A stretch of 64,000 nt of DNA from the NCBI RefSeq assembly GCF_044647545.1, contig NZ_CP172818.1, one strand, 5' to 3'. Below are positions 1,321 to 29,200 of this stretch, in pieces. Source of the DNA: Escherichia coli (GTDB lineage: Bacteria > Pseudomonadota > Gammaproteobacteria > Enterobacterales > Enterobacteriaceae). Made by a program: the position numbers and the translations under genes. The notes below the pieces were generated by a model that saw nothing but the letters and a program-made list of their open reading frames with translations, did no database searches and was not told where the DNA came from. Each line of letters opens with the position of its first letter. Within the stretch, counting starts at the first letter, position 1.

Positions 1321-1329
1321 TCTCCCTCC

Positions 1330-2331: not shown

Positions 2332-2367
2332 GGCATGTCCTTATTATGACGGGAAATGCCACCCTTT

Positions 2368-7893: not shown

Positions 7894-8297
7894 GAAAACC
7901 CAGTCCTTGCAAAGATGAAGTCGAAATGCGCGATGACACACTACTGAAAGCGGAAGGACGAGTAAAGTTGCAATTAAAAGGAAATGTTATGCATCAGGAG
8001 CAGGGGATTTTTATTATGTTGCATTGTTGTGGTCTCTTCCATGTGCATTAAGCCACTGGCGAGGAGCGCAAATCGCCGATCGTTTCCTGTAGGCCGGGGC
8101 AGCCCACATAATGTGGGCTGAGGGCGCGTTTTACAGGGATCAAACTTACCGGTCGCGCGAGAAGTCCAACTTCAGCCCGAGGTTCATGTGGCTTCCTGGC
8201 CTTCGGGAACCGCTTCAGCGTATTGACGCCACCAAGACCCGTGGTTCGGTAACGTCGAAGATAAAACAACCAGGGCAGATAAAGTGCCAATGCTTAA

Positions 8298-8993
8298 TTA
8301 ATTACGTTTTTCCAGTAGAGTCCGGTAAATCAGACCACCGATAATACCGCCGACAATTGGCACCACCCAGAAGAACCACAATTGTTCTAACGCCCAGCCG
8401 CCCTGGAAGATAGCAACCGCGGTGCTGCGCGCCGGGTTAACAGAAGTGTTAGTCACCGGAATACTGATTAAGTGAATCAGGGTTAAGGCCAGACCAATAG
8501 CGATCGGCGCAAAACCTGCCGGAGCGAATTTGTCGGTTGCGCCGTGGATCACCAGCAGGAAACCTGCACTCAATACCAGTTCAACTACCAGCGCGGAAAG
8601 CATGGAATAACCGCCTGGCGAATGCTCGCCATAACCGTTAGAAGCAAAACCGCTGGCTGCCGCGTCAAAACCTGTTTTACCACTGGCAATTAAATACAGC
8701 AGCGCCGCCGCAACAATACCGCCGACAACCTGGGCAATTACGTAGCCAACGACTTCTTTTGCCGGAAAACGTCCGCCAGCCCATAAACCAATAGTGACCG
8801 CCGGGTTAAAATGACCACCAGAAATATGACCAACAGCGAAGGCCATCGTCAGAACGGTCAGACCGAATGCCAGCGCCACGCCGGCAAAACCAATGCCTAA
8901 TTCCGGGAAGCCTGCGGCCAGTACGGCACTACCACAGCCACCAAAAACAAGCCAGAAAGTACCAAAACATTCAGCTGCTAATTTTCTGAACAT
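8298..8993 (-). CDS. aqpZ: aquaporin Z water channel
   Basis: ORF 8298-8999; two NPA motifs ([14 protein letters not shown]); start at MFRKLAAE for 231 aa. Confidence 0.93.
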
Positions 8994-9339
8994 ATCCACC
9001 TCAATTAAAAATTGACCCTGTGAAAAATATGGTCGTTTTATAGGGTCGTCGTAAAAAAGTGACGACGGAAATAATGCGCGGCTATTTTAAAAACGAAGGC
9101 GAGTCATTCACCAGATAAATAAATCCAGTAAATTTGATTTAGGGCAACAGCGGGTTGCCCCATATAGTCATTTGTCTGATTGACAGTGTAGTGCAAGCAA
9201 AAGATTTAATCCTTTAGGCGTAATAAAAAATAATTTATCATGCTAATTATTTGATTTTGTTGTTTTTGCAGGCTTATCAGCAAGAGGGAGTATAACGCGA
9301 TTATTCGCTCATTTTTCAGACATTTGCCATGCTTAAATG

Positions 9340-9352
9340 TGATGTCATCACG
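9340..9352. promoter_or_regulatory. 13-bp palindrome GTGATG-T-CATCAC about 70 bp upstream of ybjD start; candidate operator
   Basis: Perfect 6-bp inverted arms around a central T, read directly from sequence; function not established. Confidence 0.3.
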
Positions 9353-9418
9353 TATTAGCAAGGCCTTTCCCGTTATACTGCCAGCGTAAAGGATAAGTCA
9401 CATATTTCTGGAGGGGAT

Positions 9419-11077
9419 ATGATTCTTGAGCGCGTTGAAATTGTGGGTTTTCGCGGTATCAACCGTTTGTCGTTGATGCTGGAACAAAACAACGTCCTGA
9501 TTGGGGAGAACGCGTGGGGTAAATCCAGCTTGCTGGACGCCTTAACCCTGCTGCTATCGCCAGAATCAGATCTCTACCATTTTGAGCGCGACGATTTCTG
9601 GTTCCCGCCGGGAGATATCAACGGGCGAGAACATCATCTGCATATTATTTTGACCTTCCGCGAATCGCTGCCAGGCCGACATCGGGTTCGCCGCTATCGA
9701 CCGCTGGAAGCGTGCTGGACGCCATGCACCGATGGCTATCACCGTATTTTTTATCGTCTGGAAGGGGAGAGTGCGGAAGACGGCAGCGTGATGACACTCC
9801 GCAGTTTTCTCGATAAAGACGGACATCCGATTGATGTCGAGGATATTAACGATCAGGCACGCCATCTGGTGCGTTTAATGCCGGTGCTGCGCTTGCGTGA
9901 TGCCCGTTTTATGCGCCGTATTCGTAACGGCACGGTGCCAAATGTCCCTAATGTGGAAGTCACCGCGCGCCAGCTCGATTTCCTCGCCCGTGAGTTATCC
10001 TCACATCCGCAAAATCTCTCTGATGGGCAGATTCGTCAGGGACTTTCCGCAATGGTACAGCTGCTTGAGCATTATTTCTCTGAGCAGGGGGCCGGACAGG
10101 CGCGATATCGTTTAATGCGGCGGCGAGCCAGCAATGAGCAACGAAGTTGGCGCTATCTGGATATCATCAACCGGATGATTGACCGACCTGGAGGGCGCTC
10201 GTATCGGGTTATTTTGCTCGGCCTGTTTGCTACTTTGTTGCAGGCAAAAGGCACATTGCGACTGGATAAAGACGCCCGTCCATTGTTGCTGATCGAAGAT
10301 CCAGAAACCCGTTTACACCCCATTATGCTTTCAGTTGCCTGGCATCTGTTGAATCTTCTGCCATTGCAGCGCATTGCCACCACCAACTCTGGCGAGCTGC
10401 TTTCGTTAACGCCGGTAGAGCATGTTTGCCGACTGGTACGTGAGTCCTCGCGCGTTGCCGCCTGGCGTCTGGGGCCGAGTGGTTTGAGTACCGAAGATAG
10501 CCGACGCATATCCTTTCACATTCGTTTTAACCGTCCGTCATCGCTGTTTGCACGCTGCTGGCTGCTGGTGGAAGGGGAAACGGAAACCTGGGTTATCAAT
10601 GAACTGGCGCGTCAGTGCGGACATCATTTTGATGCTGAAGGGATCAAGGTCATTGAGTTTGCCCAGTCCGGGCTAAAGCCACTGGTTAAATTTGCCCGGC
10701 GAATGGGGATTGAATGGCATGTACTGGTCGATGGCGATGAAGCAGGGAAGAAATATGCCGCTACGGTACGCAGCCTGTTGAATAACGATCGGGAAGCCGA
10801 ACGAGAACATTTAACGGCGTTACCGGCGCTGGATATGGAACATTTTATGTATCGCCAGGGATTTTCCGATGTGTTCCACCGCGTGGCGCAAATCCCGGAA
10901 AATGTACCGATGAATCTGCGCAAAATTATCTCGAAAGCGATCCATCGCTCTTCCAAACCCGATCTTGCCATTGAAGTGGCAATGGAGGCCGGACGTCGTG
11001 GTGTGGACTCCGTACCGACGCTGCTGAAAAAAATGTTCTCACGCGTGCTGTGGCTGGCGCGCGGTCGCGCGGATTAA
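9419..11077 (+). CDS. ybjD: OLD-family ATP-dependent endonuclease-like protein (N-terminal ABC/AAA ATPase, C-terminal Toprim-like region)
   Basis: 552-aa ORF; Walker A GENAWGKSS near N-terminus; acidic Toprim-like motifs LLVEGETE and LVDGDEAGK in C-terminal third. Confidence 0.85.
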   Translation: MILERVEIVGFRGINRLSLMLEQNNVLIGENAWGKSSLLDALTLLLSPESDLYHFERDDFWFPPGDINGREHHLHIILTFRESLPGRHRVRRYRPLEACWTPCTDGYHRIFYRLEGESAEDGSVMTLRSFLDKDGHPIDVEDINDQARHLVRLMPVLRLRDARFMRRIRNGTVPNVPNVEVTARQLDFLARELSSHPQNLSDGQIRQGLSAMVQLLEHYFSEQGAGQARYRLMRRRASNEQRSWRYLDIINRMIDRPGGRSYRVILLGLFATLLQAKGTLRLDKDARPLLLIEDPETRLHPIMLSVAWHLLNLLPLQRIATTNSGELLSLTPVEHVCRLVRESSRVAAWRLGPSGLSTEDSRRISFHIRFNRPSSLFARCWLLVEGETETWVINELARQCGHHFDAEGIKVIEFAQSGLKPLVKFARRMGIEWHVLVDGDEAGKKYAATVRSLLNNDREAEREHLTALPALDMEHFMYRQGFSDVFHRVAQIPENVPMNLRKIISKAIHRSSKPDLAIEVAMEAGRRGVDSVPTLLKKMFSRVLWLARGRAD

Positions 11078-12066
11078 CCGCGAAACATCGTGGCCATTTG
11101 TGGCTGAATAGCGTCGAGCATCTCATAGCGCCGACGGTATTCAGCCCGTTTTTTACTGGCGATTTCGGCAATCTCTTTTCGTGCTATCTGTGCTGGAAGG
11201 CGGTAATGGCGTTCAGCATCACATACGCCGCCAACCGACTCCCAGAACGCGTTGTAATCGGCATGGATCTTGCCTTCTTTATCACGATAACGCAGGCTGC
11301 GGTAAATATGCGTTTCATTGCTGACGGCAATAATCTGCTCTACCTGCAAACGTTGGGCAAACAGACAGGCCGCTTCCATCACGAGGCGTTTGGGAAATAG
11401 CCCGTGGCAGGCTTTCGTCGCATTCTGGATTTCCTGGTGTGGAATTTCCCATTTTGCGCCTTGCAGTCCGCCAATAAACATCGTCCTTTTCCCCTGATAT
11501 TCACACAGGGTAAACGTGAGCTCTGCCAGAGGAATACCTTCGCTGTTGCGGAACAGGATGGTGCTGTCACCTTCTTTATCCATTGAGATCATCATGGTCA
11601 GCTCAAGCGTGAACTGCTCGCCGTTTTTGCCTTCCAGCTTCGCCAGTTGCAGCCCGGGGGTATTCAAATATAAGCTGAATTCTTCCGCCGACATACACCC
11701 GCGGAGTAACGCATAATGGTAACGTAACGCCTCCAGCAATTGCTTACGGCTAAGATTCGCCGCAAGGTAAGGGCGATGTAGACGTACAGGCAGTCGCGGC
11801 TGGCGCGTTAACAACACATTGAGATTAGGCCAGTGGGAAAGTTCGTTCATCCACTCAACGCTTAAACGCGGCATAATCAACGAGCGCAGCAAAAATTTCT
11901 GGCGAAAACTACGGCGATGCCAGAATTTACCCGGCCGACACTGTCCACGTGCCAGACTAAGAAAAAGTGACAGGCTGCTGAGAGATTCAGATGGCGTAAA
12001 GGTCCGTTCAGTTAGCTGCGACATATTCATGAAATCAATGATTATACATGACGTCGATTTCACCAT
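11074..12066 (-). CDS. ybjX: VirK/YbjX-family protein (DUF535)
   Basis: 330-aa ORF; stop codon overlaps ybjD stop by 4 bp (convergent); identity from recalled sequence and position. Confidence 0.75.
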   Translation of the reverse strand: MVKSTSCIIIDFMNMSQLTERTFTPSESLSSLSLFLSLARGQCRPGKFWHRRSFRQKFLLRSLIMPRLSVEWMNELSHWPNLNVLLTRQPRLPVRLHRPYLAANLSRKQLLEALRYHYALLRGCMSAEEFSLYLNTPGLQLAKLEGKNGEQFTLELTMMISMDKEGDSTILFRNSEGIPLAELTFTLCEYQGKRTMFIGGLQGAKWEIPHQEIQNATKACHGLFPKRLVMEAACLFAQRLQVEQIIAVSNETHIYRSLRYRDKEGKIHADYNAFWESVGGVCDAERHYRLPAQIARKEIAEIASKKRAEYRRRYEMLDAIQPQMATMFRG

Positions 12067-12180
12067 TGCGTATCTTAACCAAACATCAATAGTGTGATTA
12101 CTAACGTAAATTTTAGGGTTTTGTTGATATTTCGTTGAAGTTAATGACCCGGATTGGCATATGGAGTATTCAGAATATTT

Positions 12181-13296
12181 ATGAAAAAGCGGAAAACCGT
12201 GAAGAAGCGTTACGTTATTGCGCTGGTGATAGTCATCGCCGGACTGATTACGTTATGGAGAATTCTTAACGCACCCGTTCCGACTTATCAGACGCTGATT
12301 GTGCGCCCCGGTGATTTACAGCAAAGCGTGCTGGCGACCGGAAAGCTGGACGCGCTGCGTAAGGTTGACGTGGGCGCGCAGGTCAGCGGTCAGTTGAAAA
12401 CGCTGTCGGTGGCGATTGGCGATAAAGTAAAAAAAGACCAGCTTTTAGGGGTTATTGATCCTGAACAGGCTGAAAACCAGATCAAGGAGGTGGAAGCAAC
12501 GCTGATGGAGCTACGCGCGCAGCGGCAGCAGGCGGAAGCGGAGCTGAAACTGGCGCGGGTGACGTATTCCCGTCAGCAACGTCTTGCACAAACGCAAGCG
12601 GTTTCACAGCAGGATCTCGATACCGCCGCGACGGAGATGGCTGTGAAACAGGCGCAAATTGGCACCATTGACGCGCAAATCAAGCGCAATCAGGCCTCAC
12701 TCGATACGGCTAAAACCAATCTCGATTACACCCGCATCGTTGCCCCGATGGCCGGGGAAGTCACGCAAATCACCACTCTGCAAGGCCAGACGGTGATTGC
12801 CGCACAACAAGCACCGAACATTCTGACGCTGGCAGATATGAGCACCATGCTGGTAAAAGCGCAGGTTTCTGAAGCGGATGTAATCCACCTGAAGCCGGGG
12901 CAAAAAGCCTGGTTTACGGTGCTTGGCGATCCGCTGACGCGCTATGAGGGGCAAATCAAGGATGTGCTACCGACGCCGGAAAAGGTTAACGACGCTATTT
13001 TCTATTACGCCCGTTTTGAAGTCCCCAACCCCAATGGTTTGCTGCGGCTGGATATGACCGCGCAAGTGCATATTCAGCTCACCGATGTGAAAAATGTGCT
13101 GACGATCCCTCTGTCGGCGTTAGGCGATCCGGTTGGCGATAATCGTTATAAAGTCAAATTGTTGCGTAATGGTGAAACACGCGAGCGTGAAGTGACGATT
13201 GGCGCACGTAACGATACCGATGTTGAGATTGTCAAAGGGCTGGAAGCTGGCGATGAAGTGGTGATTGGTGAGGCCAAACCAGGAGCTGCGCAATGA
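12181..13296 (+). CDS. macA: macrolide efflux periplasmic adaptor (membrane fusion protein)
   Basis: ORF 12154-13296; start at [16 protein letters not shown] (371 aa); coiled-coil-rich MFP sequence; stop overlaps macB start. Confidence 0.88.
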
Positions 13297-15239
13297 CACC
13301 CTTGCTCGAATTAAAGGATATTCGTCGCAGCTATCCTGCCGGTGATGAGCAGGTTGAGGTGCTGAAGGGCATCAGCCTCGATATTTATGCCGGTGAGATG
13401 GTGGCGATTGTCGGCGCTTCAGGTTCCGGTAAATCGACCCTGATGAATATTCTCGGCTGCCTGGATAAGGCCACCAGCGGCACCTATCGCGTCGCCGGTC
13501 AGGATGTTGCCACGCTGGACGCCGATGCGCTGGCGCAACTACGCCGCGAGCATTTCGGCTTTATTTTCCAGCGTTACCATTTGCTTTCGCATTTAACCGC
13601 CGAGCAGAACGTTGAAGTACCCGCCGTCTATGCTGGTCTTGAGCGGAAACAGCGGCTGCTTCGCGCCCAGGAGTTGCTGCAACGACTGGGGCTGGAAGAC
13701 CGTACAGAGTATTATCCGGCACAGCTTTCGGGTGGTCAGCAACAGCGTGTCAGCATCGCGCGGGCATTGATGAACGGCGGTCAGGTAATTCTTGCCGATG
13801 AACCAACCGGCGCACTGGACAGCCATTCTGGCGAAGAGGTGATGGCGATCCTGCATCAGCTGCGCGATCGCGGGCATACGGTGATTATCGTTACCCACGA
13901 TCCGCAGGTCGCTGCTCAGGCCGAGCGGGTGATCGAAATTCGCGACGGCGAAATTGTGAGCAATCCTCCCGCCATTGAAAAAGTGAATGTTGCTGGCGGG
14001 ACGGAACCTGTTGTCAACACGGCGTCTGGCTGGCGGCAGTTTGCCAGCGGTTTTAACGAGGCGCTGACGATGGCATGGCGGGCGCTGGCAGCGAATAAAA
14101 TGCGTACTTTACTGACCATGCTGGGGATTATTATCGGTATTGCGTCGGTGGTTTCAATTGTCGTGGTGGGCGACGCCGCCAAACAAATGGTGCTGGCGGA
14201 TATTCGTTCTATTGGTACGAATACTATTGATGTCTATCCCGGAAAAGATTTTGGCGATGACGATCCGCAATATCAGCAGGCGCTGAAGTACGACGACTTA
14301 ATCGCCATCCAAAAACAACCGTGGGTCGCCTCAGCCACACCTGCCGTCTCGCAAAACCTGCGCCTGCGTTATAACAATGTTGATGTGGCTGCCAGTGCCA
14401 ATGGCGTGAGCGGCGATTATTTTAATGTCTATGGCATGACCTTCAGTGAAGGGAACACCTTTAATCAGGAGCAGCTGAACGGTCGTGCGCAGGTCGTAGT
14501 TCTCGACAGTAATACTCGCCGCCAGCTTTTCCCCCATAAAGCCGATGTGGTTGGCGAGGTGATTCTGGTCGGCAATATGCCCGCCAGAGTCATTGGTGTG
14601 GCGGAAGAAAAACAGTCGATGTTTGGTAGCAGTAAAGTGCTGCGTGTCTGGCTACCTTACAGCACGATGTCCGGGCGAGTTATGGGCCAGTCGTGGCTCA
14701 ACTCCATTACTGTCAGGGTGAAAGAAGGATTTGACAGCGCCGAGGCGGAACAGCAACTCACGCGTTTACTTTCACTGCGCCACGGTAAGAAGGATTTCTT
14801 TACCTGGAACATGGACGGCGTCTTGAAAACCGTTGAAAAGACCACACGTACTTTACAACTGTTTCTGACGCTGGTGGCGGTGATTTCGCTAGTGGTGGGC
14901 GGTATTGGTGTAATGAATATTATGCTGGTGTCAGTGACCGAGCGGACGCGGGAAATTGGCATTCGCATGGCTGTAGGTGCGCGAGCAAGCGATGTTTTGC
15001 AACAGTTCCTGATCGAAGCCGTACTGGTTTGCCTGGTCGGTGGCGCGTTGGGAATAACACTGTCACTGTTAATTGCTTTCACCTTGCAGCTTTTCTTACC
15101 TGGCTGGGAGATTGGTTTTTCACCGTTGGCGCTGCTGCTGGCGTTTCTCTGCTCGACGGTCACCGGGATTTTATTTGGCTGGTTACCCGCACGAAATGCG
15201 GCACGACTGGATCCAGTAGATGCTCTGGCACGAGAGTAA
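13293..15239 (+). CDS. macB: macrolide efflux ABC transporter, fused ATPase-permease
   Basis: 648-aa ORF; Walker [13 protein letters not shown] signature LSGGQQQR, C-terminal FtsX-like permease. Confidence 0.93.
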
Positions 15240-15311
15240 TTTTTGAGATAAAAATGCCAGCCGATCGGGCTGGCATTTTGCCTTTAGGATGTACACAATG
15301 AGACAGAAGAG

Positions 15312-15536
15312 CTATGCGACTGCCGCTTCTACTTCGACGGGCACAATAACACTGGCGTGATTGCCTTTTGGCCCCTGGTGGACATCAAACTGAACGGATT
15401 GTCCAGCTTTTAGCGTTCTGTAACCATCCATCTGAATGGTGGAATAATGAGCGAAAATATCTTCGCCGCCGCCTTCAGGGCAGATGAAACCAAACCCTTT
15501 GGCATTGTTGAACCACTTAACAGTACCCTTTTCCAT
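15312..15536 (-). CDS. cspD: cold-shock-domain protein CspD (stationary-phase replication inhibitor)
   Basis: ORF 15312-15566; start at MEKGTVKWFNNAKGFGFI (74 aa); RNP1-like KGFGFI motif. Confidence 0.9.
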   Translation of the reverse strand: MEKGTVKWFNNAKGFGFICPEGGGEDIFAHYSTIQMDGYRTLKAGQSVQFDVHQGPKGNHASVIVPVEVEAAVA

Positions 15537-15858
15537 GCTTCGACATCCTTCGCAAATCTTATACAAGTAAGATGGAATAAACCGGGGTCAGAGAGGGGGC
15601 TGTTCAAAACCTCGCCAACTCTAGAAATACAATTTAGAGAATTAGGGCGAGCCGTCAAGCATTTGACAGGGGCCAGGGGGCAGGTATGAATCAAAAATTT
15701 GAAGCAGTTAACGCTATTGACAGGAATGTGACAGATGTCGCTGATGCCAACGATAGATGATAGTTATCTATCATGTGGAGTAGATTGGTCAGGCAAATAA
15801 GCTCTTGTCAGCGGCAGGGCGTTCTGCCGATAACCGTAACCGAAGATGATAACTGACA

Positions 15859-16179
15859 ATGGGTAAAACGAACGACTGGCTGGACTTTGATCAACTGGCG
15901 GAAGAAAAAGTTCGCGACGCGCTAAAACCGCCATCTATGTATAAAGTGATATTAGTCAATGATGATTACACTCCGATGGAGTTTGTTATTGACGTGTTAC
16001 AAAAATTCTTTTCTTATGATGTAGAACGTGCAACGCAATTGATGCTCGCTGTTCACTACCAGGGGAAGGCCATTTGCGGAGTCTTTACCGCCGAGGTTGC
16101 AGAAACCAAAGTGGCGATGGTGAACAAGTACGCGAGGGAGAATGAGCATCCATTGCTGTGTACGCTAGAAAAAGCCTGA
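15859..16179 (+). CDS. clpS: ClpS adaptor for ClpAP (N-degron recognition)
   Basis: 106-aa ORF immediately upstream of clpA; recognised sequence. Confidence 0.92.
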
Positions 16180-16209
16180 ATGCAGGCATAAAAATTGGGG
16201 GAGGTGCCT

Positions 16210-18486
16210 ATGCTCAATCAAGAACTGGAACTCAGTTTAAATATGGCTTTCGCCAGAGCGCGCGAGCACCGTCATGAGTTTATGACCGTCGAGCACTTGT
16301 TACTGGCGCTGCTCAGTAACCCATCTGCCCGGGAGGCGCTGGAAGCGTGTTCTGTGGATTTGGTTGCGCTCCGTCAGGAACTGGAAGCCTTTATTGAACA
16401 AACCACACCCGTTCTGCCTGCCAGTGAAGAGGAGCGCGACACACAGCCGACGCTGAGTTTTCAGCGTGTACTGCAACGTGCGGTCTTCCATGTCCAGTCC
16501 TCCGGTCGCAATGAGGTTACCGGTGCAAACGTTCTGGTCGCTATCTTTAGCGAACAGGAGTCGCAGGCGGCATATCTGTTGCGTAAACATGAAGTCAGCC
16601 GTCTCGATGTGGTGAACTTTATCTCTCATGGCACGCGTAAAGACGAGCCGACACAGTCTTCTGATCCTGGCAGCCAGCCAAACAGCGAAGAACAAGCTGG
16701 TGGGGAGGAACGTATGGAGAATTTCACGACGAACCTGAATCAGCTTGCGCGCGTGGGCGGAATCGACCCACTGATTGGTCGTGAGAAGGAGCTGGAACGT
16801 GCTATTCAGGTTCTCTGCCGTCGCCGTAAAAACAACCCGCTGCTGGTGGGGGAATCTGGTGTCGGTAAAACCGCGATTGCGGAAGGTCTTGCCTGGCGAA
16901 TTGTTCAGGGCGATGTGCCGGAAGTGATGGCTGACTGTACGATTTACTCTCTCGATATCGGTTCTCTGTTAGCGGGCACAAAATATCGCGGCGACTTTGA
17001 AAAACGTTTTAAAGCGTTGCTCAAGCAGCTGGAGCAGGACACTAACAGCATCCTGTTTATTGATGAGATCCACACCATTATCGGTGCGGGGGCAGCGTCT
17101 GGTGGTCAGGTTGATGCGGCTAACCTAATCAAACCGTTGCTCTCCAGCGGTAAAATTCGCGTAATTGGTTCGACAACCTATCAGGAGTTCAGCAACATTT
17201 TCGAGAAAGACCGTGCTCTGGCGCGTCGCTTCCAGAAAATTGATATTACTGAACCTTCGATCGAAGAAACTGTTCAAATCATCAATGGCCTGAAACCGAA
17301 GTACGAAGCGCACCATGACGTGCGTTATACCGCAAAAGCGGTGCGTGCAGCGGTAGAGCTGGCGGTGAAATACATTAACGATCGTCATCTGCCGGATAAA
17401 GCCATTGACGTTATCGACGAAGCGGGCGCTCGCGCACGCCTGATGCCGGTAAGCAAACGCAAGAAAACCGTTAATGTGGCGGATATTGAGTCTGTGGTGG
17501 CCCGTATTGCGCGCATTCCAGAGAAGAGTGTTTCGCAGAGTGACCGCGATACCCTGAAAAACCTCGGCGATCGCCTGAAAATGCTGGTCTTCGGTCAGGA
17601 TAAAGCCATTGAGGCGCTGACTGAAGCCATTAAGATGGCGCGTGCAGGTTTAGGTCACGAACATAAACCGGTCGGTTCGTTCCTGTTTGCCGGTCCTACC
17701 GGGGTCGGGAAAACAGAGGTGACGGTACAGCTTTCGAAAGCTTTGGGCATTGAGCTTCTGCGCTTTGATATGTCCGAGTATATGGAACGCCATACCGTCA
17801 GCCGTCTGATTGGTGCGCCTCCGGGATACGTTGGTTTTGATCAGGGGGGGCTGCTGACCGATGCGGTAATCAAGCATCCGCACGCGGTACTGCTGCTGGA
17901 CGAAATCGAGAAAGCGCATCCGGACGTGTTCAATATTCTGTTGCAGGTGATGGACAACGGTACGCTGACCGATAACAACGGACGCAAAGCGGACTTCCGT
18001 AACGTGGTATTGGTGATGACCACCAACGCCGGGGTACGAGAAACTGAGCGTAAATCGATTGGTCTTATCCACCAGGATAACAGCACCGATGCGATGGAAG
18101 AGATCAAGAAGATCTTTACACCGGAATTCCGTAACCGTCTCGACAACATTATCTGGTTTGATCATCTGTCAACCGACGTGATCCATCAGGTGGTGGATAA
18201 ATTCATCGTCGAGTTGCAGGTTCAGCTGGATCAGAAAGGTGTTTCTCTGGAAGTGAGCCAGGAAGCGCGTAACTGGCTGGCCGAGAAAGGTTACGACCGG
18301 GCAATGGGCGCTCGTCCGATGGCGCGTGTCATCCAGGACAACCTGAAAAAACCGCTCGCCAACGAACTGCTGTTTGGTTCGCTGGTGGACGGCGGTCAGG
18401 TCACCGTCGCGCTGGATAAAGAGAAAAATGAGCTGACTTACGGATTCCAGAGTGCACAAAAGCACAAGGCGGAAGCAGCGCATTAA
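16210..18486 (+). CDS. clpA: ATP-dependent Clp protease ATP-binding subunit ClpA
   Basis: ORF 16195-18486; two AAA+ modules with Walker A GESGVGKT and GPTGVGKT; start at [10 protein letters not shown] (758 aa). Confidence 0.95.
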
Positions 18487-18510
18487 TCTGATTGTCAGGT
18501 AGGTTGGTCA

Positions 18511-18549
18511 AGTCCGTAATCTCGAAAGAGGTTGCGGACTTTTTATTTA
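18511..18549 (+). terminator. putative intrinsic terminator downstream of clpA
   Basis: Imperfect hairpin AGTCCG...CGGACT followed by TTTTATTT. Confidence 0.55.
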
Positions 18550-18738
18550 TGGGGTGGAACGGTGAAAACCCTATTTTTGGAGGTGAAGGTAAGTTGTTGA
18601 TAATTAGTGCTGCTGGAAAAGGTAAGGATAAAAAAGGGTGACAGCAGGAAAATGAGATGGTTTTGCTTTATTAACAACGGACTAAACGTGTAGTATTTGA
18701 TTCACTCCGACAATAAAAGAAAATCAAAGTTGAAATGG

Positions 18739-18826
18739 GTTCACTGCCGTACAGGCAGCTTAGAAATTCACTGGTAACATACTCCACCCGCCCACCATGT
18801 TCACTGCCGTACAGGCAGATAAAATG
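18739..18826. CRISPR. orphan CRISPR remnant: two 28-bp type I-F-like repeats flanking one 32-bp spacer, no cas genes in window
   Basis: Repeat 1 GTTCACTGCCGTACAGGCAGCTTAGAAA (18739-18766); spacer 18767-18798; repeat 2 GTTCACTGCCGTACAGGCAGATAAAATG (18799-18826), degenerate at 3' end. Confidence 0.7.
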
Positions 18827-18828
18827 CG

Positions 18829-18858
18829 AAAAAAAAAGCTCGCACTTTCGTACGAGCT
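18829..18858 (-). terminator. intrinsic terminator of serW
   Basis: Minus-strand hairpin AGCTCG...CGAGCT followed by a 9-nt U run (plus-strand A run 18829-18837). Confidence 0.65.
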
Positions 18859-18870
18859 CTTCTTTAAATA

Positions 18871-18958
18871 TGGCGGTGAGGGGGGGATTCGAACCCCCGA
18901 TACGTTGCCGTATACACACTTTCCAGGCGTGCTCCTTCAGCCACTCGGACACCTCACC
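18871..18958 (-). tRNA. serW: tRNA-Ser (anticodon GGA), class II with long variable arm
   Basis: Reverse complement reads GGTGAGGTGTCCGAGTGGCTGAAGGAGCACGCCTGGAAAGTG...GGTTCGAATCC...CTCACCGCCA; anticodon loop CTGGAAA; 3' CCA encoded. Confidence 0.9.
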
Positions 18959-19143
18959 AAATTGTTTTGCTACCAAACCTCATGGGTGGCAACGGGGCGC
19001 TACTATAGGGAGTTGGAGTAAAACGGTCAAGAAGAATTTTAATGATAATTATTGTTTGCTCATACTGTAAACAAGTTGTGCAGTATATCTACATCGAGAC
19101 AAGTTATGGACTTATACTTCCAAAGTACTTCATACATATCACA

Positions 19144-19170
19144 AAATAAAAAGGCCGGTTAAACCGACCT
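19144..19170 (-). terminator. intrinsic terminator downstream of infA
   Basis: Hairpin AGGCCGGTT/AACCGACCT (one mismatch) followed on minus strand by a U-rich run (plus-strand A run 19144-19151). Confidence 0.6.
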
Positions 19171-19211
19171 TTTACTCGTTCTTTCTCTTCGCCCATCAGG
19201 CGGTAAAACAA

Positions 19212-19433
<222 letters not shown>

Positions 19434-19714
19434 ATCCTCTGGGGTATCACTACCGTAATTTGAACCGGCAAGATAATGCCGAAGTTCTGTAAATAAGTAA
19501 AGATTTGCGCGCTAAATCGCAACAAACAGGTTCGGCACATTACTCCGAAAACACACGGCTAAGCCGCACCAAAAGCGCAACGTATAAGGGAGCGGTGAGA
19601 TAAACGATGGGCGTTACCTGACGCGAAAAATTCCTTATCGGCAGCGGGGTAATGAGCGTAACCAACTCTGCGACCGCAATTATAACACTCTGGGGAGAAA
19701 TGTGCCGAAAACAT

Positions 19715-20419
19715 TCATTCTTGTGGTGAAAACAAGCACCGTGGTACCCAGAATTTATTCGGCAATCGTCCGAGGCGCATTTGATTGAGATAATTGAGGT
19801 AATCCCGGCGGGGAATTTCGCAGGCACCAAGCGACGCTGTGTGATCGTTAAGGACCTGGCAGTCGATAAGTTTACCGCCATGACCGATAAATTCCTCACA
19901 GAATACCAGAAGCGCCGTTTTAGACGCATTTTCCATCCGGCTGAACATGGACTCGCCACAAAATAGTGTTCCCTGGGCCACACCGTACATACCGCCAACA
20001 AGCTCATCTTCACACCAGACTTCGATGGAGTGGGCATGACCGAGTTCGTGAAGACGATGGTAGGCTTCGACCACGCCACGCGTGATCCAGGTTCCTTCTT
20101 CGCGATCGCTGGCACAGCCTTCAATGACCTGACCAAAGGCGTAATTCATCGTGACACGATAGGGCGAGCGTTTATGAAATCGTTTCATACTACGGCTGAT
20201 ATGCAATGATTCAGGCCATAGTACCGCGCGAGGATCGGGCGACCACCAGAGGATGGGGTCGCCTGGAGAAAACCACGGGAAAATACCACGCTGATAAGCC
20301 ATTAACAGGCGCGCAGGGCTAAGATCGCCCCCCAGTGCCAGCAGGCCGTTAGGCTCACGTAATGCGCCTTCCGGGGAAGGGAAGGCTATTGAATGGCGAG
20401 AAAGCTGAACCAGGCGCAT
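19715..20419 (-). CDS. aat: leucyl/phenylalanyl-tRNA--protein transferase
   Basis: 234-aa ORF; recognised sequence; position upstream of cydCD-trxB. Confidence 0.92.
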
Positions 20420-20460
20420 GACCGCAAAACTCCACGCAAGTCGGATCGTTCAATAATAGC

Positions 20461-22182
20461 TTACAAACCCTGCTTAAACTGGTAATAACGCCCCTGTCTG
20501 GCAAGCAGTTCTGCGTGAGTACCTTGCTCAATAATTTGCCCGTTGTCCATCACTATTATTTGTTGGAAACGAGAGAGTCCGCGAAGTCGATGGGTGACCA
20601 TTAACACCGTTTTCTCGCACATCATTTCTGCAAGCAATTCAAGGATCTGACTTTCGGTTGTGGCATCTAAGCCTTCTGTAGGTTCATCCAGCAATACCAG
20701 CGGCGCATCATGTAACAGCGCACGGGCGATAGCCAGACGGCGCAGTTCACCACCGGAGAGCTGGCGTCCGCCTTCACCTAACCAACTGTTGAGACCTGCA
20801 TCCTCGAGCAGCTTCTCCAGACCAACGCGACGTAAGATCTCCGCCAGAGCCTCATCACTACTGCCAGGTGAGGCGAGTAACAGATTATCACGCAGCGTGG
20901 CGCTAAACAGATGCACTCGCTGTGGCACAACGCTGATGGTCTGTCGTAGAGTCGCTTCATTCAGGCTGGCTATGGGGCTATCGTTAAGCAAAATCTCGCC
21001 CTGTTGCGGGTCCCATGCGCGGGTCAGCAGTTGTAACAATGTTGATTTGCCGCATCCGGTTCGCCCGAGAATCGCTATATGTTCTCCGGCGTTTACCTGA
21101 AGAGAAATCCCTTTAAGTGCCTGTTGGGATTGCTCCGGATAAGTGAACTGAACATCCCGTAACGTCAGCGAAACGCGATCGGCAACACGAGTTTGGGTAT
21201 CAGGGAAAGTGACCTCCGGTTTTTGATCCGTTAAGTCAGTGATCCGTACGGCAGAGGCAATGACTTGCCCCAGATGCTGAAATGCACCCGTTACTGGTGC
21301 CAGTGCTTCAAACGCGGCTAACGCGCAGAAGACAAACAGGGCAATTAACGCGCCGGGTTGAGCATTGCCGCCAACGCCGCCAGACGCCATCCACAGCATC
21401 AGGATCACCGCTAACGCGCCAATGAGCAGCATTATCGCTTGTGACAATGCGGTGAGTTCAGATTGACGACGTTGCGCTTCCAGCCACTGAATTTCGGTAT
21501 TCTCTAACTGCGTGCGATAACGATCGCTGGCACCAAAAATGGTCAGCTCAGCTTGCCCTTGCAGCCAGGCCGTCAGTTGTTGGCGATACTGCCCGCGAAG
21601 ATGAGTCAGATTTTGCCCGGTGCTTTTTCCCGCACGATAAAACAGTGGTGGCATAAGGAAAAGCGTCAGTAACATAATGCCGCCCAGCGTAAAGGCGAGG
21701 GTGAAATCAAGGAAACTTAACCCGATTGTCACCACCATAATCACCACAAAAGCGCCTACCAGCGGTGAGATAACGCGCAGGTAAAGATGATCGAGCGTAT
21801 CAACATCCGCCACCACGCGGTTGAGTAATTCGCCCTGACGATAGCGCGCCAGTCCGGCAGGGGAGAGGGGCAGTAATTTGCTGAAGGTGTAAATGCGCAG
21901 ATGCTGCAACACGCGGAAAGTCGCGTCGTGACTTACCAGACGTTCAAAATAGCGCCCGGCAGTACGGGTGATTGCTGCGCCACGCACGCCCGCAGCGGGT
22001 AGCATATAGTTGAAGCTGTACAGTCCGGCAACCCCCGCTACCGCTGAGGCGGAGAGGAACCAGCCGGAAAGTGTCAACAGACCGATACTGGCGAGCAGCG
22101 TGACAATTGCCAGCACAATACCAAGACTTAACATCCATTTATGACGTTTATACAGTGCCAGATAGGGTAGCAAAGCGCGCAT
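20461..22182 (-). CDS. cydC: glutathione/cysteine ABC exporter subunit CydC
   Basis: 573-aa ORF; N-terminal transmembrane domain plus ABC ATPase with Walker A GRTGCGKST and LSGGELRR. Confidence 0.93.
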   Translation of the reverse strand: MRALLPYLALYKRHKWMLSLGIVLAIVTLLASIGLLTLSGWFLSASAVAGVAGLYSFNYMLPAAGVRGAAITRTAGRYFERLVSHDATFRVLQHLRIYTFSKLLPLSPAGLARYRQGELLNRVVADVDTLDHLYLRVISPLVGAFVVIMVVTIGLSFLDFTLAFTLGGIMLLTLFLMPPLFYRAGKSTGQNLTHLRGQYRQQLTAWLQGQAELTIFGASDRYRTQLENTEIQWLEAQRRQSELTALSQAIMLLIGALAVILMLWMASGGVGGNAQPGALIALFVFCALAAFEALAPVTGAFQHLGQVIASAVRITDLTDQKPEVTFPDTQTRVADRVSLTLRDVQFTYPEQSQQALKGISLQVNAGEHIAILGRTGCGKSTLLQLLTRAWDPQQGEILLNDSPIASLNEATLRQTISVVPQRVHLFSATLRDNLLLASPGSSDEALAEILRRVGLEKLLEDAGLNSWLGEGGRQLSGGELRRLAIARALLHDAPLVLLDEPTEGLDATTESQILELLAEMMCEKTVLMVTHRLRGLSRFQQIIVMDNGQIIEQGTHAELLARQGRYYQFKQGL

Positions 22183-23949
22183 TTAAATCTCCTCCTGACG
22201 ATGGGCCAGCAATGTGGCGAAAGGACCACCAGCCACGCTTAATTCCGCGTAACGTCCTTGCTCAATAATCTGACCATCCTGCATTACCCAAATGACATCC
22301 CAGTCAGCAAGATCTTCTAACTGGTGGGTGACCATTAACGTTGTCTGGCGCAGAGAGGCGGCATTAAGCGCCTCCATTACGCGCTGTTCACTGTGAGCAT
22401 CAAGGCTGGCAGCGGGTTCATCCAACAGTAATAGCGAACAGGGATTTAGTAATGCTCGGGCCACCGCCACGCGCTGTGCCTGCCCCACGGAAAGACGGGC
22501 AGCCTGGTCACCAACAGGCGTATCAATGCCTTGCGGCAGGAGCGGTAGAAACTCACTGACCCAGGCGTTATCCAGCGCTGTTTGTAACTCTTGTTCGCTG
22601 GCATCAGGTCGCGCCAGTAGTACGTTATCCCGTAATGTTGCTGCCGGTAATTGTGGGTTTTGCCCAACCCAGGAGAGATGTTTACGCCATGATTCCGGTG
22701 ATAAATCGCGTAATTCTATCCCGTTGATTCGTAGCGATCCCTGATATGAGAGAAAACCAGAAAGCGCGTTCAGCAGTGAGCTTTTACCTGAACCGCTGCG
22801 ACCAACCAACACTGCACGTTGGCCTGCTGGCAAAGTAAAGTTCAGCGGTCCAGCCAGCGTTTTACCTTCTGGTGATGTAATAAACAGATCCTCGGCTTCA
22901 ATGGTCACCGGATCGGTTGATGCTAATTCCGCCTCACCACGTTGCGGATGGGCGAGCGGGGTTTCCATAAACGTTTTCAGACTGTCAGCTGCGCCAACAG
23001 CCTGGGCTTTAGCATGATAAAACGTACCGAGATCGCGTAATGGCTGGAAAAACTCCGGCGCAAGGATCAGGGCCAGAAAACCCGCAGCCAGCGTCACGCC
23101 AGTATCGTAGTGACCAAAATCCAGCTCGCCGAGATAGGAAAAACCAAAGTAGACCGCCACCAGCGCAATTGACAGCGAGGTAAAAAATTCGAGAATGCCG
23201 GAGGATAAAAACGCCAGCCGTAGTACTTCCATTGTCCGTTGGCGGAAATCTTCCGAAGCAGAACGAATACTTTCAATTTCAGCTTCACCACGACCAAAAA
23301 TACGCAGTGTTTCCATGCCGCGCAGGCGATCGAGGAAATGCCCACTTAAGCGAGCAAGAGCGAGAAAGTTACGTCGGTTAGCATCGGCAGCCCCCATTCC
23401 AACCAGCGCCATAAACAACGGAATTAACGGTGCTGTGCCCAGCAGAATGAGCGCCGCAGCCCAGTTAGAGGGGAAGATCGCCACCACAATCAGCAACGGC
23501 ACCGACACTGCCAGCGCCATTTGCGGCAGGTAGCGTGCATAGTAATCATGCATATCGTCAATTTGCTCGAGTACCAGCGTCGCCCAGCTCCCCGCCGGTT
23601 TACCCTGAATCCACGCTGGCCCTGCTTGTTGCAGACGGTCGAGAACCTGACGGCGGATGGCAAAGCGGATATGCTGCCCGGCGTGATAACCCACCCGTTC
23701 GCGTAACCAGACCACCCATGCGCGCAGTACAAAGGTCAGAACCAGTAACGTAAAGGGAAGCAGCAGGGCTTCACGGGGAATATTCTCCATAATCATATGT
23801 TGCAGAATTCGCGCCATGAACCAGGCCTGGGCAATGATCAATATGCCGCTCACAAAGCCCAGCAGACGAGAAATATTCAGCCAACGTTGGGAGATGACGC
23901 TTTGCTGTTTTAACCAGCGGGTTAACTCTTTTTGACGGGATTTATTCAT
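22183..23949 (-). CDS. cydD: glutathione/cysteine ABC exporter subunit CydD
   Basis: 588-aa ORF; Walker [10 protein letters not shown], signature LSVGQAQR; directly abuts cydC. Confidence 0.93.
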   Translation of the reverse strand: MNKSRQKELTRWLKQQSVISQRWLNISRLLGFVSGILIIAQAWFMARILQHMIMENIPREALLLPFTLLVLTFVLRAWVVWLRERVGYHAGQHIRFAIRRQVLDRLQQAGPAWIQGKPAGSWATLVLEQIDDMHDYYARYLPQMALAVSVPLLIVVAIFPSNWAAALILLGTAPLIPLFMALVGMGAADANRRNFLALARLSGHFLDRLRGMETLRIFGRGEAEIESIRSASEDFRQRTMEVLRLAFLSSGILEFFTSLSIALVAVYFGFSYLGELDFGHYDTGVTLAAGFLALILAPEFFQPLRDLGTFYHAKAQAVGAADSLKTFMETPLAHPQRGEAELASTDPVTIEAEDLFITSPEGKTLAGPLNFTLPAGQRAVLVGRSGSGKSSLLNALSGFLSYQGSLRINGIELRDLSPESWRKHLSWVGQNPQLPAATLRDNVLLARPDASEQELQTALDNAWVSEFLPLLPQGIDTPVGDQAARLSVGQAQRVAVARALLNPCSLLLLDEPAASLDAHSEQRVMEALNAASLRQTTLMVTHQLEDLADWDVIWVMQDGQIIEQGRYAELSVAGGPFATLLAHRQEEI

Positions 23950-24004
23950 TGCACGCTTAGCAGGTGAGTTATCAGAATTATTTGCAGAGCAATGTTACAA
24001 CGAG

Positions 24005-24044
24005 GAAAAAATAAAGGCGACCCATAGTCGCATGGTGTCGCCTT
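24005..24044 (-). terminator. putative intrinsic terminator downstream of trxB
   Basis: Minus-strand stem GGCGAC/GTCGCC with a large loop, followed by UUUAUUUUUU. Confidence 0.45.
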
Positions 24045-24071
24045 CTTTACTTTTGTTACTGATTTGTAAAA

Positions 24072-25154
<1,083 letters not shown>

Positions 25155-25580
25155 TCAAATTCTCCCGTCATTATCACCTCTGCTACTTAAATTTCCCGCT
25201 TTATAAGCCGATTAAATGATGAATAAACGCCCCTGTTAATGAATATCTGGCATGTTGTACTAAAAATCGATGTTTTGCTTTGACAATCCCCTGGTGTTTT
25301 GCGAAAACATTCGAGGAAGAAAAAAACAGTATTCTTATATGCGCATAACCATGCATGTAAATACCATGTTTACCGTGCTAGTGAAATCTACGTATGGCGT
25401 GGACAGACGCCATTCGTGATGTCGATAGCTGCCACAAGGCAACGGTCTTCTCACCGTAGACCCAGGCATTGCGCGCCGTGAATCTTCATGATTTCGGTCT
25501 ATCGTGACGGGTAGCGACTCTGAACAGTGATGTTTCAGGGTCAGACAGGAGTAGGGAAGGAATACAGAGAGACAATAATA

Positions 25581-26075
25581 ATGGTAGATAGCAAGAAGCG
25601 CCCTGGCAAAGATCTCGACCGTATCGATCGTAACATTCTTAATGAGTTGCAAAAGGATGGGCGTATTTCTAACGTCGAGCTTTCTAAACGTGTGGGACTT
25701 TCCCCAACGCCGTGCCTTGAGCGTGTGCGTCGGCTGGAAAGACAAGGGTTTATTCAGGGCTATACGGCGCTGCTGAACCCCCATTATCTGGATGCATCAC
25801 TTCTGGTATTCGTTGAGATTACTCTGAATCGTGGCGCACCGGATGTGTTTGAACAATTCAATACCGCTGTACAAAAACTTGAAGAAATTCAGGAGTGTCA
25901 TTTAGTATCCGGTGATTTCGACTACCTGTTGAAAACACGCGTGCCGGATATGTCAGCTTACCGTAAGTTGTTGGGGGAAACCCTGCTGCGTCTGCCTGGC
26001 GTCAATGACACACGGACATACGTTGTTATGGAAGAAGTCAAGCAGAGTAATCGTCTGGTTATTAAGACGCGCTAA
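25581..26075 (+). CDS. lrp: leucine-responsive regulatory protein (AsnC/Lrp family)
   Basis: ORF 25527-26075; start at MVDSKKRPGKDLDRIDR (164 aa); HTH plus RAM domain recognised. Confidence 0.93.
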   Translation: MVDSKKRPGKDLDRIDRNILNELQKDGRISNVELSKRVGLSPTPCLERVRRLERQGFIQGYTALLNPHYLDASLLVFVEITLNRGAPDVFEQFNTAVQKLEEIQECHLVSGDFDYLLKTRVPDMSAYRKLLGETLLRLPGVNDTRTYVVMEEVKQSNRLVIKTR

Positions 26076-26209: not shown

Positions 26210-29200
26210 TTGAGCCAGGAATACACTGAAGACAAAGAAGTCACATTGACAAAGTTAAGTAGCGGCCGCCGCCTTCTGGAGGCGTTGCTGATCCTTATTG
26301 TCCTGTTTGCCGTCTGGTTGATGGCTGCCTTACTAAGCTTTAACCCTTCGGACCCCAGCTGGTCGCAAACGGCCTGGCATGAACCTATCCATAATTTAGG
26401 TGGGATGCCCGGTGCATGGCTGGCAGATACGCTGTTCTTTATTTTTGGCGTGATGGCTTACACCATTCCCGTCATTATTGTCGGCGGTTGTTGGTTTGCC
26501 TGGCGTCATCAGTCCAGCGACGAATACATTGATTATTTTGCCGTTTCGCTACGCATCATTGGCGTTTTGGCGCTCATCCTTACCTCCTGTGGTCTGGCGG
26601 CAATCAACGCTGACGATATCTGGTATTTTGCCTCCGGTGGCGTCATTGGCAGCTTACTGAGCACTACGCTACAACCACTGCTACACAGTAGCGGGGGAAC
26701 TATTGCACTGCTCTGCGTTTGGGCAGCGGGCCTGACGCTGTTCACCGGTTGGTCATGGGTGACCATTGCTGAAAAACTCGGCGGCTGGATTTTAAATATT
26801 CTTACCTTCGCCAGTAATCGTACCCGTCGCGATGATACCTGGGTCGATGAAGATGAGTATGAAGACGACGAAGAATATGAAGAAGATGAAAGTCACGGCA
26901 AACAGCATGAATCACGCCGTGCCCGTATTCTTCGCGGCGCGCTAGCGCGTCGTAAACGGTTGGCGGAAAAATTCATTAATCCGATGGGGCGGCAAACAGA
27001 CGCTGCGTTGTTCTCCGGTAAGCGGATGGATGATGACGAAGAGATTACCTACACTGCACGCGGTGTGGCTGCCGACCCTGACGACGTCCTCTTTTCGGGC
27101 AATCGTGCAACGCAGCCAGAATATGACGAGTACGATCCATTATTAAACGGTGCGCCAATTACCGAACCTGTTGCTGTAGCAGCTGCTGCTACCACGGCGA
27201 CACAAAGCTGGGCTGCACCGGTTGAACCTGTGACTCAGACGCCGCCAGTTGCCTCTGTTGATGTTCCACCTACGCAACCTACAGTAGCCTGGCAGCCTGT
27301 ACCGGGGCCGCAAACAGGAGAACCGGTTATTGCACCTGCACCGGAAGGTTACCCACAGCAGTCACAATATGCGCAGCCTGCAGTGCAATATAATGAGCCG
27401 CTGCAACAACCTGTACAGCCACAGCAGCCGTATTATGCGCCTGCAGCGGAACAGCCTGTGCAACAACCTTACTACGCTCCTGCGCCGGAACAGTCTGCGC
27501 AACAGCCGTATTACGCCCCTGCGCCAGAACAATCGGTGGCAGGTAACGCCTGGCAAGCCGAAGAGCAGCAATCCACTTTTGCTCCACAGTCTACATACCA
27601 GACTGAGCAAACTTATCAGCAGCCAGCCGCTCAGGAGCCGTTGTACCAACAGCCGCAACCCGTTGAACAGCAGCCTGTTGTGGAGCCTGAACCCGTTGTA
27701 GAAGAGACAAAACCCGCGCGTCCGCCGCTTTACTATTTTGAAGAAGTGGAAGAGAAGCGTGCCCGTGAACGTGAACAACTTGCGGCCTGGTATCAACCGA
27801 TTCCTGAACCGGTTAAAGAACCAGAACCGATCAAATCTTCGCTGAAAGCACCTTCTGTTGCAGCAGTACCTCCAGTGGAAGCCGCTGCCGCTGTTTCCCC
27901 TCTGGCATCTGGCGTGAAAAAAGCGACACTGGCGACGGGGGCTGCCGCAACCGTTGCCGCGCCAGTCTTCAGTCTGGCAAATAGCGCTGGACCGCGTCCG
28001 CAGGTCAAAGAGGGGATTGGCCCGCAGTTGCCACGACCGAAACGCATCCGCGTGCCAACTCGTCGTGAACTGGCGTCTTACGGTATTAAGCTGCCCTCAC
28101 AGCGTGCGGCAGAAGAAAAAGCCCGTGAAGCTCAGCGCAATCAGTACGATTCCGGCGATCAGTATAACGATGATGAAATCGATGCGATGCAGCAGGATGA
28201 ACTGGCACGTCAGTTCGCCCAGACACAGCAGCAACGCTATGGCGAACAGTATCAACATGATGTGCCCGTGAACGCAGAAGATGCAGATGCTGCGGCAGAG
28301 GCTGAACTGGCTCGTCAGTTTGCTCAAACTCAACAACAACGTTATTCCGGCGAACAACCTGCTGGGGCGAATCCGTTCACTCTGGATGATTTTGAATTTT
28401 CGCCAATGAAAGCGTTGCTGGATGATGGTCCACACGAACCGCTGTTTACGCCAATTGTTGAACCTGTACAGCAGCCGCAACAACCGAAAGTTGCACCGCA
28501 GCAGCAATATCAGCAGCCGCAACAGCCGGTTGCACCACAGCCGCAATATCAGCAGCCGCAACAGCCGGTTGCGCCGCAGCCGCAGTATCAGCAGCCACAA
28601 CAACCGGTTGCGCCGCAGCCGCAATATCAGCAGCCACAACAGCCAGTTGCGCCGCAGCCGCAGTATCAGCAGCCACAACAGCCAGTTGCGCCACAGCCGC
28701 AGGATACCCTGCTTCATCCGCTGTTGATGCGTAATGGCGACAGCCGTCCGTTGCATAAACCGACGACGCCGCTGCCTTCTCTGGATTTGTTGACGCCGCC
28801 GCCGAGCGAAGTGGAGCCGGTAGATACCTTTGCTCTTGAACAAATGGCGCGTCTGGTGGAAGCGCGTCTGGCTGATTTCCGTATTAAAGCCGATGTCGTC
28901 AATTATTCTCCGGGGCCGGTTATCACTCGCTTTGAATTGAACCTGGCACCGGGCGTAAAAGCGGCGCGTATTTCTAACTTGTCACGTGACCTTGCCCGTT
29001 CACTTTCGACGGTGGCGGTGCGTGTCGTTGAAGTTATTCCTGGCAAACCCTATGTAGGTCTGGAGTTACCGAATAAAAAACGACAAACCGTTTATCTGCG
29101 TGAAGTTTTGGATAACGCCAAATTCCGCGATAATCCGTCGCCATTAACCGTGGTGCTGGGTAAAGATATCGCCGGTGAGCCGGTGGTTGCCGATCTGGCG

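Follow-up and report, generated by a model that had tools for sequence, protein, structure and literature searches.

The DNA analysed here is a 64-kb stretch of Escherichia coli, referred to below as the window. Between its clpA gene and a tRNA-Ser gene, a short series of CRISPR repeats is found with no cas gene beside it. The features of this intergenic region and of its borders are given below in the order of their coordinates.

16195-18486: clpA open reading frame, upstream of the array, named from the clpA annotation in homologous loci.
18510-18541, plus strand: intrinsic terminator of clpA, a 14-bp stem followed by TTTATTT, strong in the terminator scan.
18549-18700, plus strand: AT-rich CRISPR leader, homologous to the leader of the cas-linked array CRISPR4.1.
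18701-18738, plus strand: degraded repeat-plus-spacer unit of 38 nt, a perfect subsequence of a 60-nt unit of the relatives.
18739-18766, plus strand: repeat R1, an intact type I-F repeat, GTTCACTGCCGTACAGGCAGCTTAGAAA (Rfam CRISPR-DR4, 50.1 bits; hairpin of -8.6 kcal/mol).
18767-18798, plus strand: 32-nt anti-cas1f spacer, TTCACTGGTAACATACTCCACCCGCCCACCAT, corresponding to the antisense strand of cas1f.
18799-18826, plus strand: terminal repeat R2, GTTCACTGCCGTACAGGCAGATAAAATG, its first 20 nt intact (Cas6f hairpin included) and its last 8 nt degenerate.
18837-18858: hairpin AGCTCGCACTTTCGTACGAGCT, followed by a T-run on the minus strand, found by folding of 18739-18870.
18871-18958, minus strand: tRNA-Ser(GGA), at the position of serW (ARAGORN, Rfam tRNA).

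Beyond the tRNA-Ser gene, infA, aat, cydC and cydD are found. The hairpin at 18837-18858 is probably the terminator of serW on the minus strand, and on the plus strand it is likely to form the end of the array transcript, both functions being predicted ones. Rfam matches to sX4, Thr_leader and Plastid-psbl-rps4 were discarded as noise, since they scored far under their gathering scores and overlapped the tRNA or the terminator. On the other side of the array, the clpA terminator stands between clpA transcription and the CRISPR leader. When four loci were aligned, the final 50 nt or so of this leader (18651-18700) proved to be nearly invariant. A consensus scan of the leader for a plus-strand sigma-70 promoter returned none, and a looser scan gave weak sigma-70-like candidates, the best of which was TTGGAG-16-GATAAT at 18577/18599 with 8 of 12 matches.

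In some genomes (strains JNEC-KY178 and elppa9), an element of the IS200C family is inserted in the clpA-serW intergenic region. In E. coli F11 (L001, NZ_CM184318.1), a 177-nt unit located between the orphan array and the tRNA gene is present three times in tandem (14310-14722); at the start of every copy are the terminator hairpin of serW and the initial bases of the tRNA-Ser region.

A previous sequence-only reading of this DNA had described two 28-nt repeats around a single 32-nt spacer beside serW, and direct inspection of the sequence and of the tRNA predictions gave the same coordinates and the same neighbour. It had also described the second repeat as degenerate in its last 8 bp, and these bases, ATAAAATG, indeed depart from the consensus. 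A degenerate 3' end is usual for the leader-distal repeat of a CRISPR array. An identical terminal repeat was present in the other cas-less loci that were compared with the window. The type I-F assignment of the first repeat was borne out by comparison with the Rfam family RF01317 (CRISPR-DR4): R1 scored 50.1 bits for a gathering score of 35 and agreed with the consensus at 27 of its 28 positions. R2 obtained 29.7 bits and fell under this threshold because only three of its eight terminal bases fit the consensus.

The 20-nt core common to both repeats was recovered by a repeat finder as an exact direct repeat with a spacing of 60 nt. Even when three mismatches were allowed, this core occurred at just two sites in the 64-kb window, where 0.01 chance matches were expected and where none of 100 shuffles gave two or more. 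Both R1 and R2 fold into a 5-bp stem closed by a 5-nt loop, .....(((((.....)))))........, with an energy of -8.6 kcal/mol, in agreement with the structure line of RF01317. The feature thus combines a repeat of about 28 nt (R1), a Cas6f-type hairpin, an AT-rich leader on one side with a degenerate repeat at the far end, and a period of 60 nt with a 32-nt spacer, this regularity resting on one interval (a single intact spacer) and on homology to longer arrays. It is a real type I-F CRISPR array.

The cognate cas genes that would make it a complete CRISPR-Cas system were not found in the window. When six I-F Cas proteins taken from an I-F-positive strain were compared with the window by tblastn, the sole match was a 24-residue fragment of Cas1f, which corresponds to the spacer itself. 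Furthermore, the window is nearly identical over about 48 kb to E. coli FDAARGOS_497, with one SNP outside the repeats and with three short variable stretches of the window excluded; the annotation of that genome across the whole window consists of housekeeping genes, from ybjT to kdsB, and contains no cas gene. The earlier statement that the window is devoid of cas genes therefore stands on both the protein search and the gene list of a near-identical genome. Since no cas genes adjoin it, the array is an orphan array and not a complete system.

The locus of I-F-positive E. coli is laid out as clpA, leader, CRISPR4.1, cas1f, cas3f, csy1, csy2, csy3, cas6f, tRNA-Ser, CRISPR4.2 and infA. The operon cas1f-cas3f-csy1-csy2-csy3-cas6f occupies the exact position of the window array, as the annotation of strain FDAARGOS_1284 (L003) shows, and the placement of the cas operon at clpA-infA by the sequence-only reading was correct. 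FDAARGOS_1284 carries a 4-repeat array upstream of cas1f and a 6-repeat array between tRNA-Ser and infA. Its csy1 gene (8279-9586) contains an internal stop and is listed as a pseudogene in the annotation, and therefore the I-F system of this strain may be inactive.

By blastn, positions 17800-18818 of the window were 90% identical to FDAARGOS_1284, over a stretch that runs from the end of clpA through the leader into the first repeats. The homology broke off 20 bases into the terminal repeat (18818) and was found again from 18826 on, some 64 nt past the stop codon of cas6f, so that relative to this strain the window is without about 8.65 kb comprising the distal array and the cas operon. Further on, the 108 nt at 19040-19147 stand in place of the 637 nt that hold the second array and its leader in the I-F-positive strain. 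The alignment to an I-F-positive locus that the sequence-only reading had proposed thus yielded mapped breakpoints (18818/18826) and no clean deletion junction: the 7 nt between the homology blocks match neither side, leaving both a junction and any microhomology undefined. With the complete I-F systems of E. coli (LF82, UTI89, FDAARGOS_1284 and E69), which are kin of those of Yersinia and Pseudomonas, the window shares the repeat and its hairpin, the leader, the chromosomal site, the CC/GG protospacer-adjacent motif (PAM) and the spacer length of 32 nt. Unlike them, it has no cas1f, cas3f, csy1-3 or cas6f, no CRISPR4.2 between serW and infA, and a single intact spacer.

The sequence-only reading had supposed that the spacer could still carry information, and searches with it revealed a target, the cas1f gene of the I-F system. 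The spacer (18767-18798) matched the antisense strand of cas1f of FDAARGOS_1284 at 31 of 32 positions, in the context ...TTTACC|TTCGCTGGTAACATACTCCACCCGCCCACCAT|TCACC, with the mismatch at spacer position 4 and a CC preceding the match. A second cas1f allele matched at 30 of 32 positions, again with a CC PAM. The match was complete (32/32, CC PAM) with cas1f of E. coli E69 (L010, CP089930.1), in which the exact protospacer lies at 924-955 and a CRISPR4.1 array with 36 or more repeats at 1230-3410; the Cas1f protein of E69 belongs to a divergent allele, with 94.8% identity to that of FDAARGOS_1284. In cas1f, the CC adjoins the leader-proximal end of the match. PMC3506596 places the I-F PAM of E. 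coli beside the leader-proximal end of the protospacer, as a GG in the target strand, which reads CC on the strand identical to the spacer, and the position observed in cas1f agrees with this definition. The window therefore has what distinguishes an orphan anti-cas array: a spacer matching an I-F cas gene with an I-F PAM, and a site between clpA and serW/infA in a region that is free of cas-F genes throughout the 64-kb window.

The mismatch with the commonest cas1f allele, at position 4, falls in the PAM-proximal seed and should weaken direct interference; for this allele, priming is therefore more likely than direct interference.

Other origins of the spacer were also considered. No match was found among 50,697 phage records, and the search of 72,556 plasmids returned chance-level partial matches only, one of them in cas1f of a Vitreoscilla plasmid; a phage or plasmid origin was rejected on these searches. 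The spacer is not an in-situ remnant of a deleted cas1f, as it is inverted relative to this gene, whose direction is the same as that of clpA, and is bordered by full repeats on both sides. Self-targeting inside the window, which the sequence-only reading had put forward as a possibility, was dismissed, no second site being present in the window within 12 mismatches on either strand.

In complete E. coli genomes, the 32-mer of the spacer was found in 2578 genomes and at 2582 places in total, the majority of them at the clpA-serW intergenic locus and, in I-F-positive strains, inside cas1f. With 2582 places for 2578 genomes, at most four genomes can carry the spacer and its cas1f target together. 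Among the E. coli matches listed, all lay at the array locus or in cas1f, except a single 23-nt match at chance level (E = 6). The cas1f gene itself was present in 241 of the 5426 complete E. coli genomes. The anti-cas1f spacer or near variants of it are thus kept in about 2300 genomes across lineages and almost never occur together with cas1f.

The spacer of the window is identical to that of O157:H7 strains, and K-12 (MG1655, L005) and F11 have an A at position 6 instead of the T of the window. ST131 possesses a different single spacer, which matches cas3f at 31 of 32 positions and has a CC PAM. In the three-repeat arrays, the first spacer matches cas3f with several mismatches, 3 of them in the case of L002. 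In all the cas-less loci compared (the window, K-12, F11, L002 and L007), the surviving spacers match I-F cas genes, and so do both spacers of strain 14EC001 (L006). K-12 and F11 have a substitution in the terminal repeat, G17A, that disrupts the stem of the hairpin, and the anti-cas1f spacer of 14EC001 is shortened by 4 nt to a length of 28 nt. These two changes show lineage-specific decay of the orphan array.

The description of the array as one of two repeats is exact for the intact repeats, but it missed a third, degraded unit at 18701-18738. In the closest relatives of the window, at least 15 genomes, the layout is leader, repeat, anti-cas3f spacer, repeat, anti-cas1f spacer and terminal repeat (three repeats), and this unit is their sole difference from the window across positions 12000-26000. 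The 60-nt unit of these relatives consists of a repeat and the anti-cas3f spacer GGAACAATCTTGCAAAGGCTGTGAAAGTTGGC. Over a 6.7-kb alignment with FDAARGOS_497 there were no mismatches, and all of the 22 deleted bases, distributed over 15 gaps, were located within the unit. The 38-mer was a perfect subsequence of the unit in none of 200,000 shuffles. It has retained all 18 A residues and has lost 11 G, 6 C and 5 T, a pattern in which every A was spared in only 6 of 200,000 trials with random deletions. Folding revealed no hairpin left in 18701-18738, and the 38-mer was not found elsewhere in the 5426 complete E. coli genomes, in the GTDB representative genomes or in the JGI metagenomes.

A second private stretch, at about 7998-8300 in the lysO-aqpZ intergenic region, consists of a GC-rich multi-copy repeat in which mismatches and indels are mixed; positions 7950-8350 are covered to at most 61% by any complete E. 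coli genome, with flanks identical to FDAARGOS_497. In an internally repetitive stretch of the ftsK linker (28466-28700), the window departs from FDAARGOS_497 by clustered A/G differences and by an indel of 3 nt; the blast alignments are ambiguous there because of the internal repeats.

For the 38-nt stretch, the most likely origin is either an error of the assembly or a lesion private to this genome. Since the two private anomalies, at 18701-18738 and about 7998-8300, both lie in repetitive DNA that forms hairpins, within a sequence that is clonal elsewhere, we suggest a local error of assembly or polishing rather than biology for both. That the 38-mer is a real private lesion, in which one localised event removed 22 scattered G, C and T residues and no A, seems improbable. 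If it were true, it would point to an unusual base-selective process that made multiple deletions in a CRISPR unit, or else to a selective pressure to silence one spacer. A wrecked unit next to the leader could also impair the integration of new spacers at the leader-repeat junction.

The array is already known, as the short type I-F array without cas genes that is present in most E. coli at this site. It is CRISPR4.1-2 in the nomenclature of the Mojica group, where this name designates the orphan I-F array of the CRISPR-III locus (PMC3903273), and CRISPR3 in that of Touchon & Rocha; the locus has been known since 2010, which the sequence-only reading overlooked. Touchon & Rocha 2010 (PMC2886076) reported that CRISPR3 spacers match the I-F genes cas1, cas3 and csy2 and proposed an 'anti-CRISPR' role for them. 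According to what is related in the 2021 review of the Mojica group (PMC8616872), Almendros et al. 2016 (Nat Microbiol 1:16081) demonstrated the expression of arrays of this kind, which destroy plasmids that bring in I-F cas genes. The orphan CRISPR4.1-2 arrays described (Diez-Villasenor 2010; Touchon & Rocha 2010; Almendros 2014, 2016) have the locus, repeat and leader of the window, the terminal repeat ending in ATAAAATG, one or two spacers matching I-F cas genes and no cas-F genes; only the 38-nt degraded unit distinguishes the window from them.

The array can also be likened to the mini-arrays and solitary repeat units of phages and mobile elements (Faure 2019; Medvedeva 2019), which, as they are presented in PMC8616872, also have one spacer, lack cas genes and use Cas proteins in trans. 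According to the same account, these are carried by mobile elements and are directed at competitors or at the host, whereas the array of the window is chromosomal and vertically inherited, occupies a core intergenic region and is aimed at the very cas genes that would activate it.

Two histories of the locus have been published. Touchon & Rocha (PMC2886076) argued that the cas-less array is ancestral, and the Mojica group (PMC8616872) favours a loss of the operon driven by self-targeting spacers. The view of the sequence-only reading, that the array is the footprint left after loss of the system, corresponds to one of these two histories. The array is also more than a passive remnant, since according to the literature it is expressed and prevents the uptake of I-F cas genes.

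From these data, the best explanation is very probably that the window carries an orphan I-F anti-cas array at clpA-serW which excludes the I-F system from the lineage. The array would be transcribed from its leader and would remain harmless and inactive as long as I-F Cas proteins are absent. A mobile element bringing an I-F cas operon would supply Cas6f, the Csy complex and Cas2-3. The incoming Cas6f would then cut the pre-crRNA at the two intact hairpins and release CUUAGAAA-spacer-GUUCACUGCCGUACAGGCAG, in which R1 would provide the 8-nt 5' handle CUUAGAAA of the crRNA. Once loaded with this crRNA, the Csy complex would guide Cas2-3 to the incoming cas1f, leading to destruction of the carrier DNA, and an imperfect match would lead to primed acquisition of further spacers. 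The net effect would be that the lineage stays free of the I-F system. The anatomy of the array, the homology of its leader, the spacer target with its PAM, the window without cas genes and the near-exclusive distribution of spacer and target were computed in the present analysis; expression, interference and priming are taken from Almendros et al. 2016 as conveyed by PMC8616872. In spite of the damage to its leader-proximal unit, the allele of the window would be expected to work still.

A different reading of the same locus is that of an inert fossil, a neutral leftover of a lost I-F system which persists by inertia in a small stretch between genes and has no function in this strain. Signs of decay speak for it, namely the degraded unit of the window, the stem mutation of K-12 and F11 and the truncated spacer of 14EC001, as do the seed mismatch between the spacer and the common cas1f allele and a leader with no clear promoter in consensus scans. 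Against neutral persistence, the surviving spacers of all five cas-less loci and both spacers of 14EC001 match I-F cas genes and not random targets, and the anti-cas1f spacer or its variants persist in about 2300 genomes almost never in company of cas1f. The 50 nt of the leader that adjoin the array are nearly invariant, and the literature, through the account in PMC8616872, reports both expression and interference. We consequently regard an inert fossil as unlikely, and the anti-cas array as the better reading.

Regulation of host genes by a crRNA-like small RNA made from the mini-array, independently of I-F Cas proteins, is very improbable. Such a role has been considered for other orphan arrays, among them one in Listeria (PMC8616872), but our analysis found no support for it: on neither strand does the window hold another site that differs from the spacer by 12 mismatches or fewer, and the listed E. 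coli matches all lie at the array locus or in cas1f, bar the 23-nt one with E = 6. Still less credible, to the point of being negligible, is the proposal that the locus is not CRISPR at all and that the duplicated 20-mer is part of a tRNA-associated or terminator structure, an idea to which its distance of 45 nt from a tRNA gene and its position next to the terminator hairpin of that gene lend some colour. R1 lies above the curated Rfam threshold for CRISPR-DR4, the repeats also make up arrays of 4, 6 and at least 36 units adjoining I-F cas genes at this locus in other strains, and the 60-nt period with a 32-nt spacer is canonical. The two outcomes that the sequence-only reading had named as fatal to its proposal, a repeat without a known family and a non-CRISPR structure linked to the tRNA, were thus both contradicted, the former by the RF01317 score of R1 in the repeat-database comparison.

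The orphan I-F anti-cas array described here adds one more allele to a known picture, and annotation pipelines should label such loci as orphan I-F 'anti-cas' arrays. In this picture, a CRISPR array would immunise the bacterium against CRISPR-Cas itself, which would help to explain the rarity of the I-F system in E. coli (241 of 5426 complete genomes).
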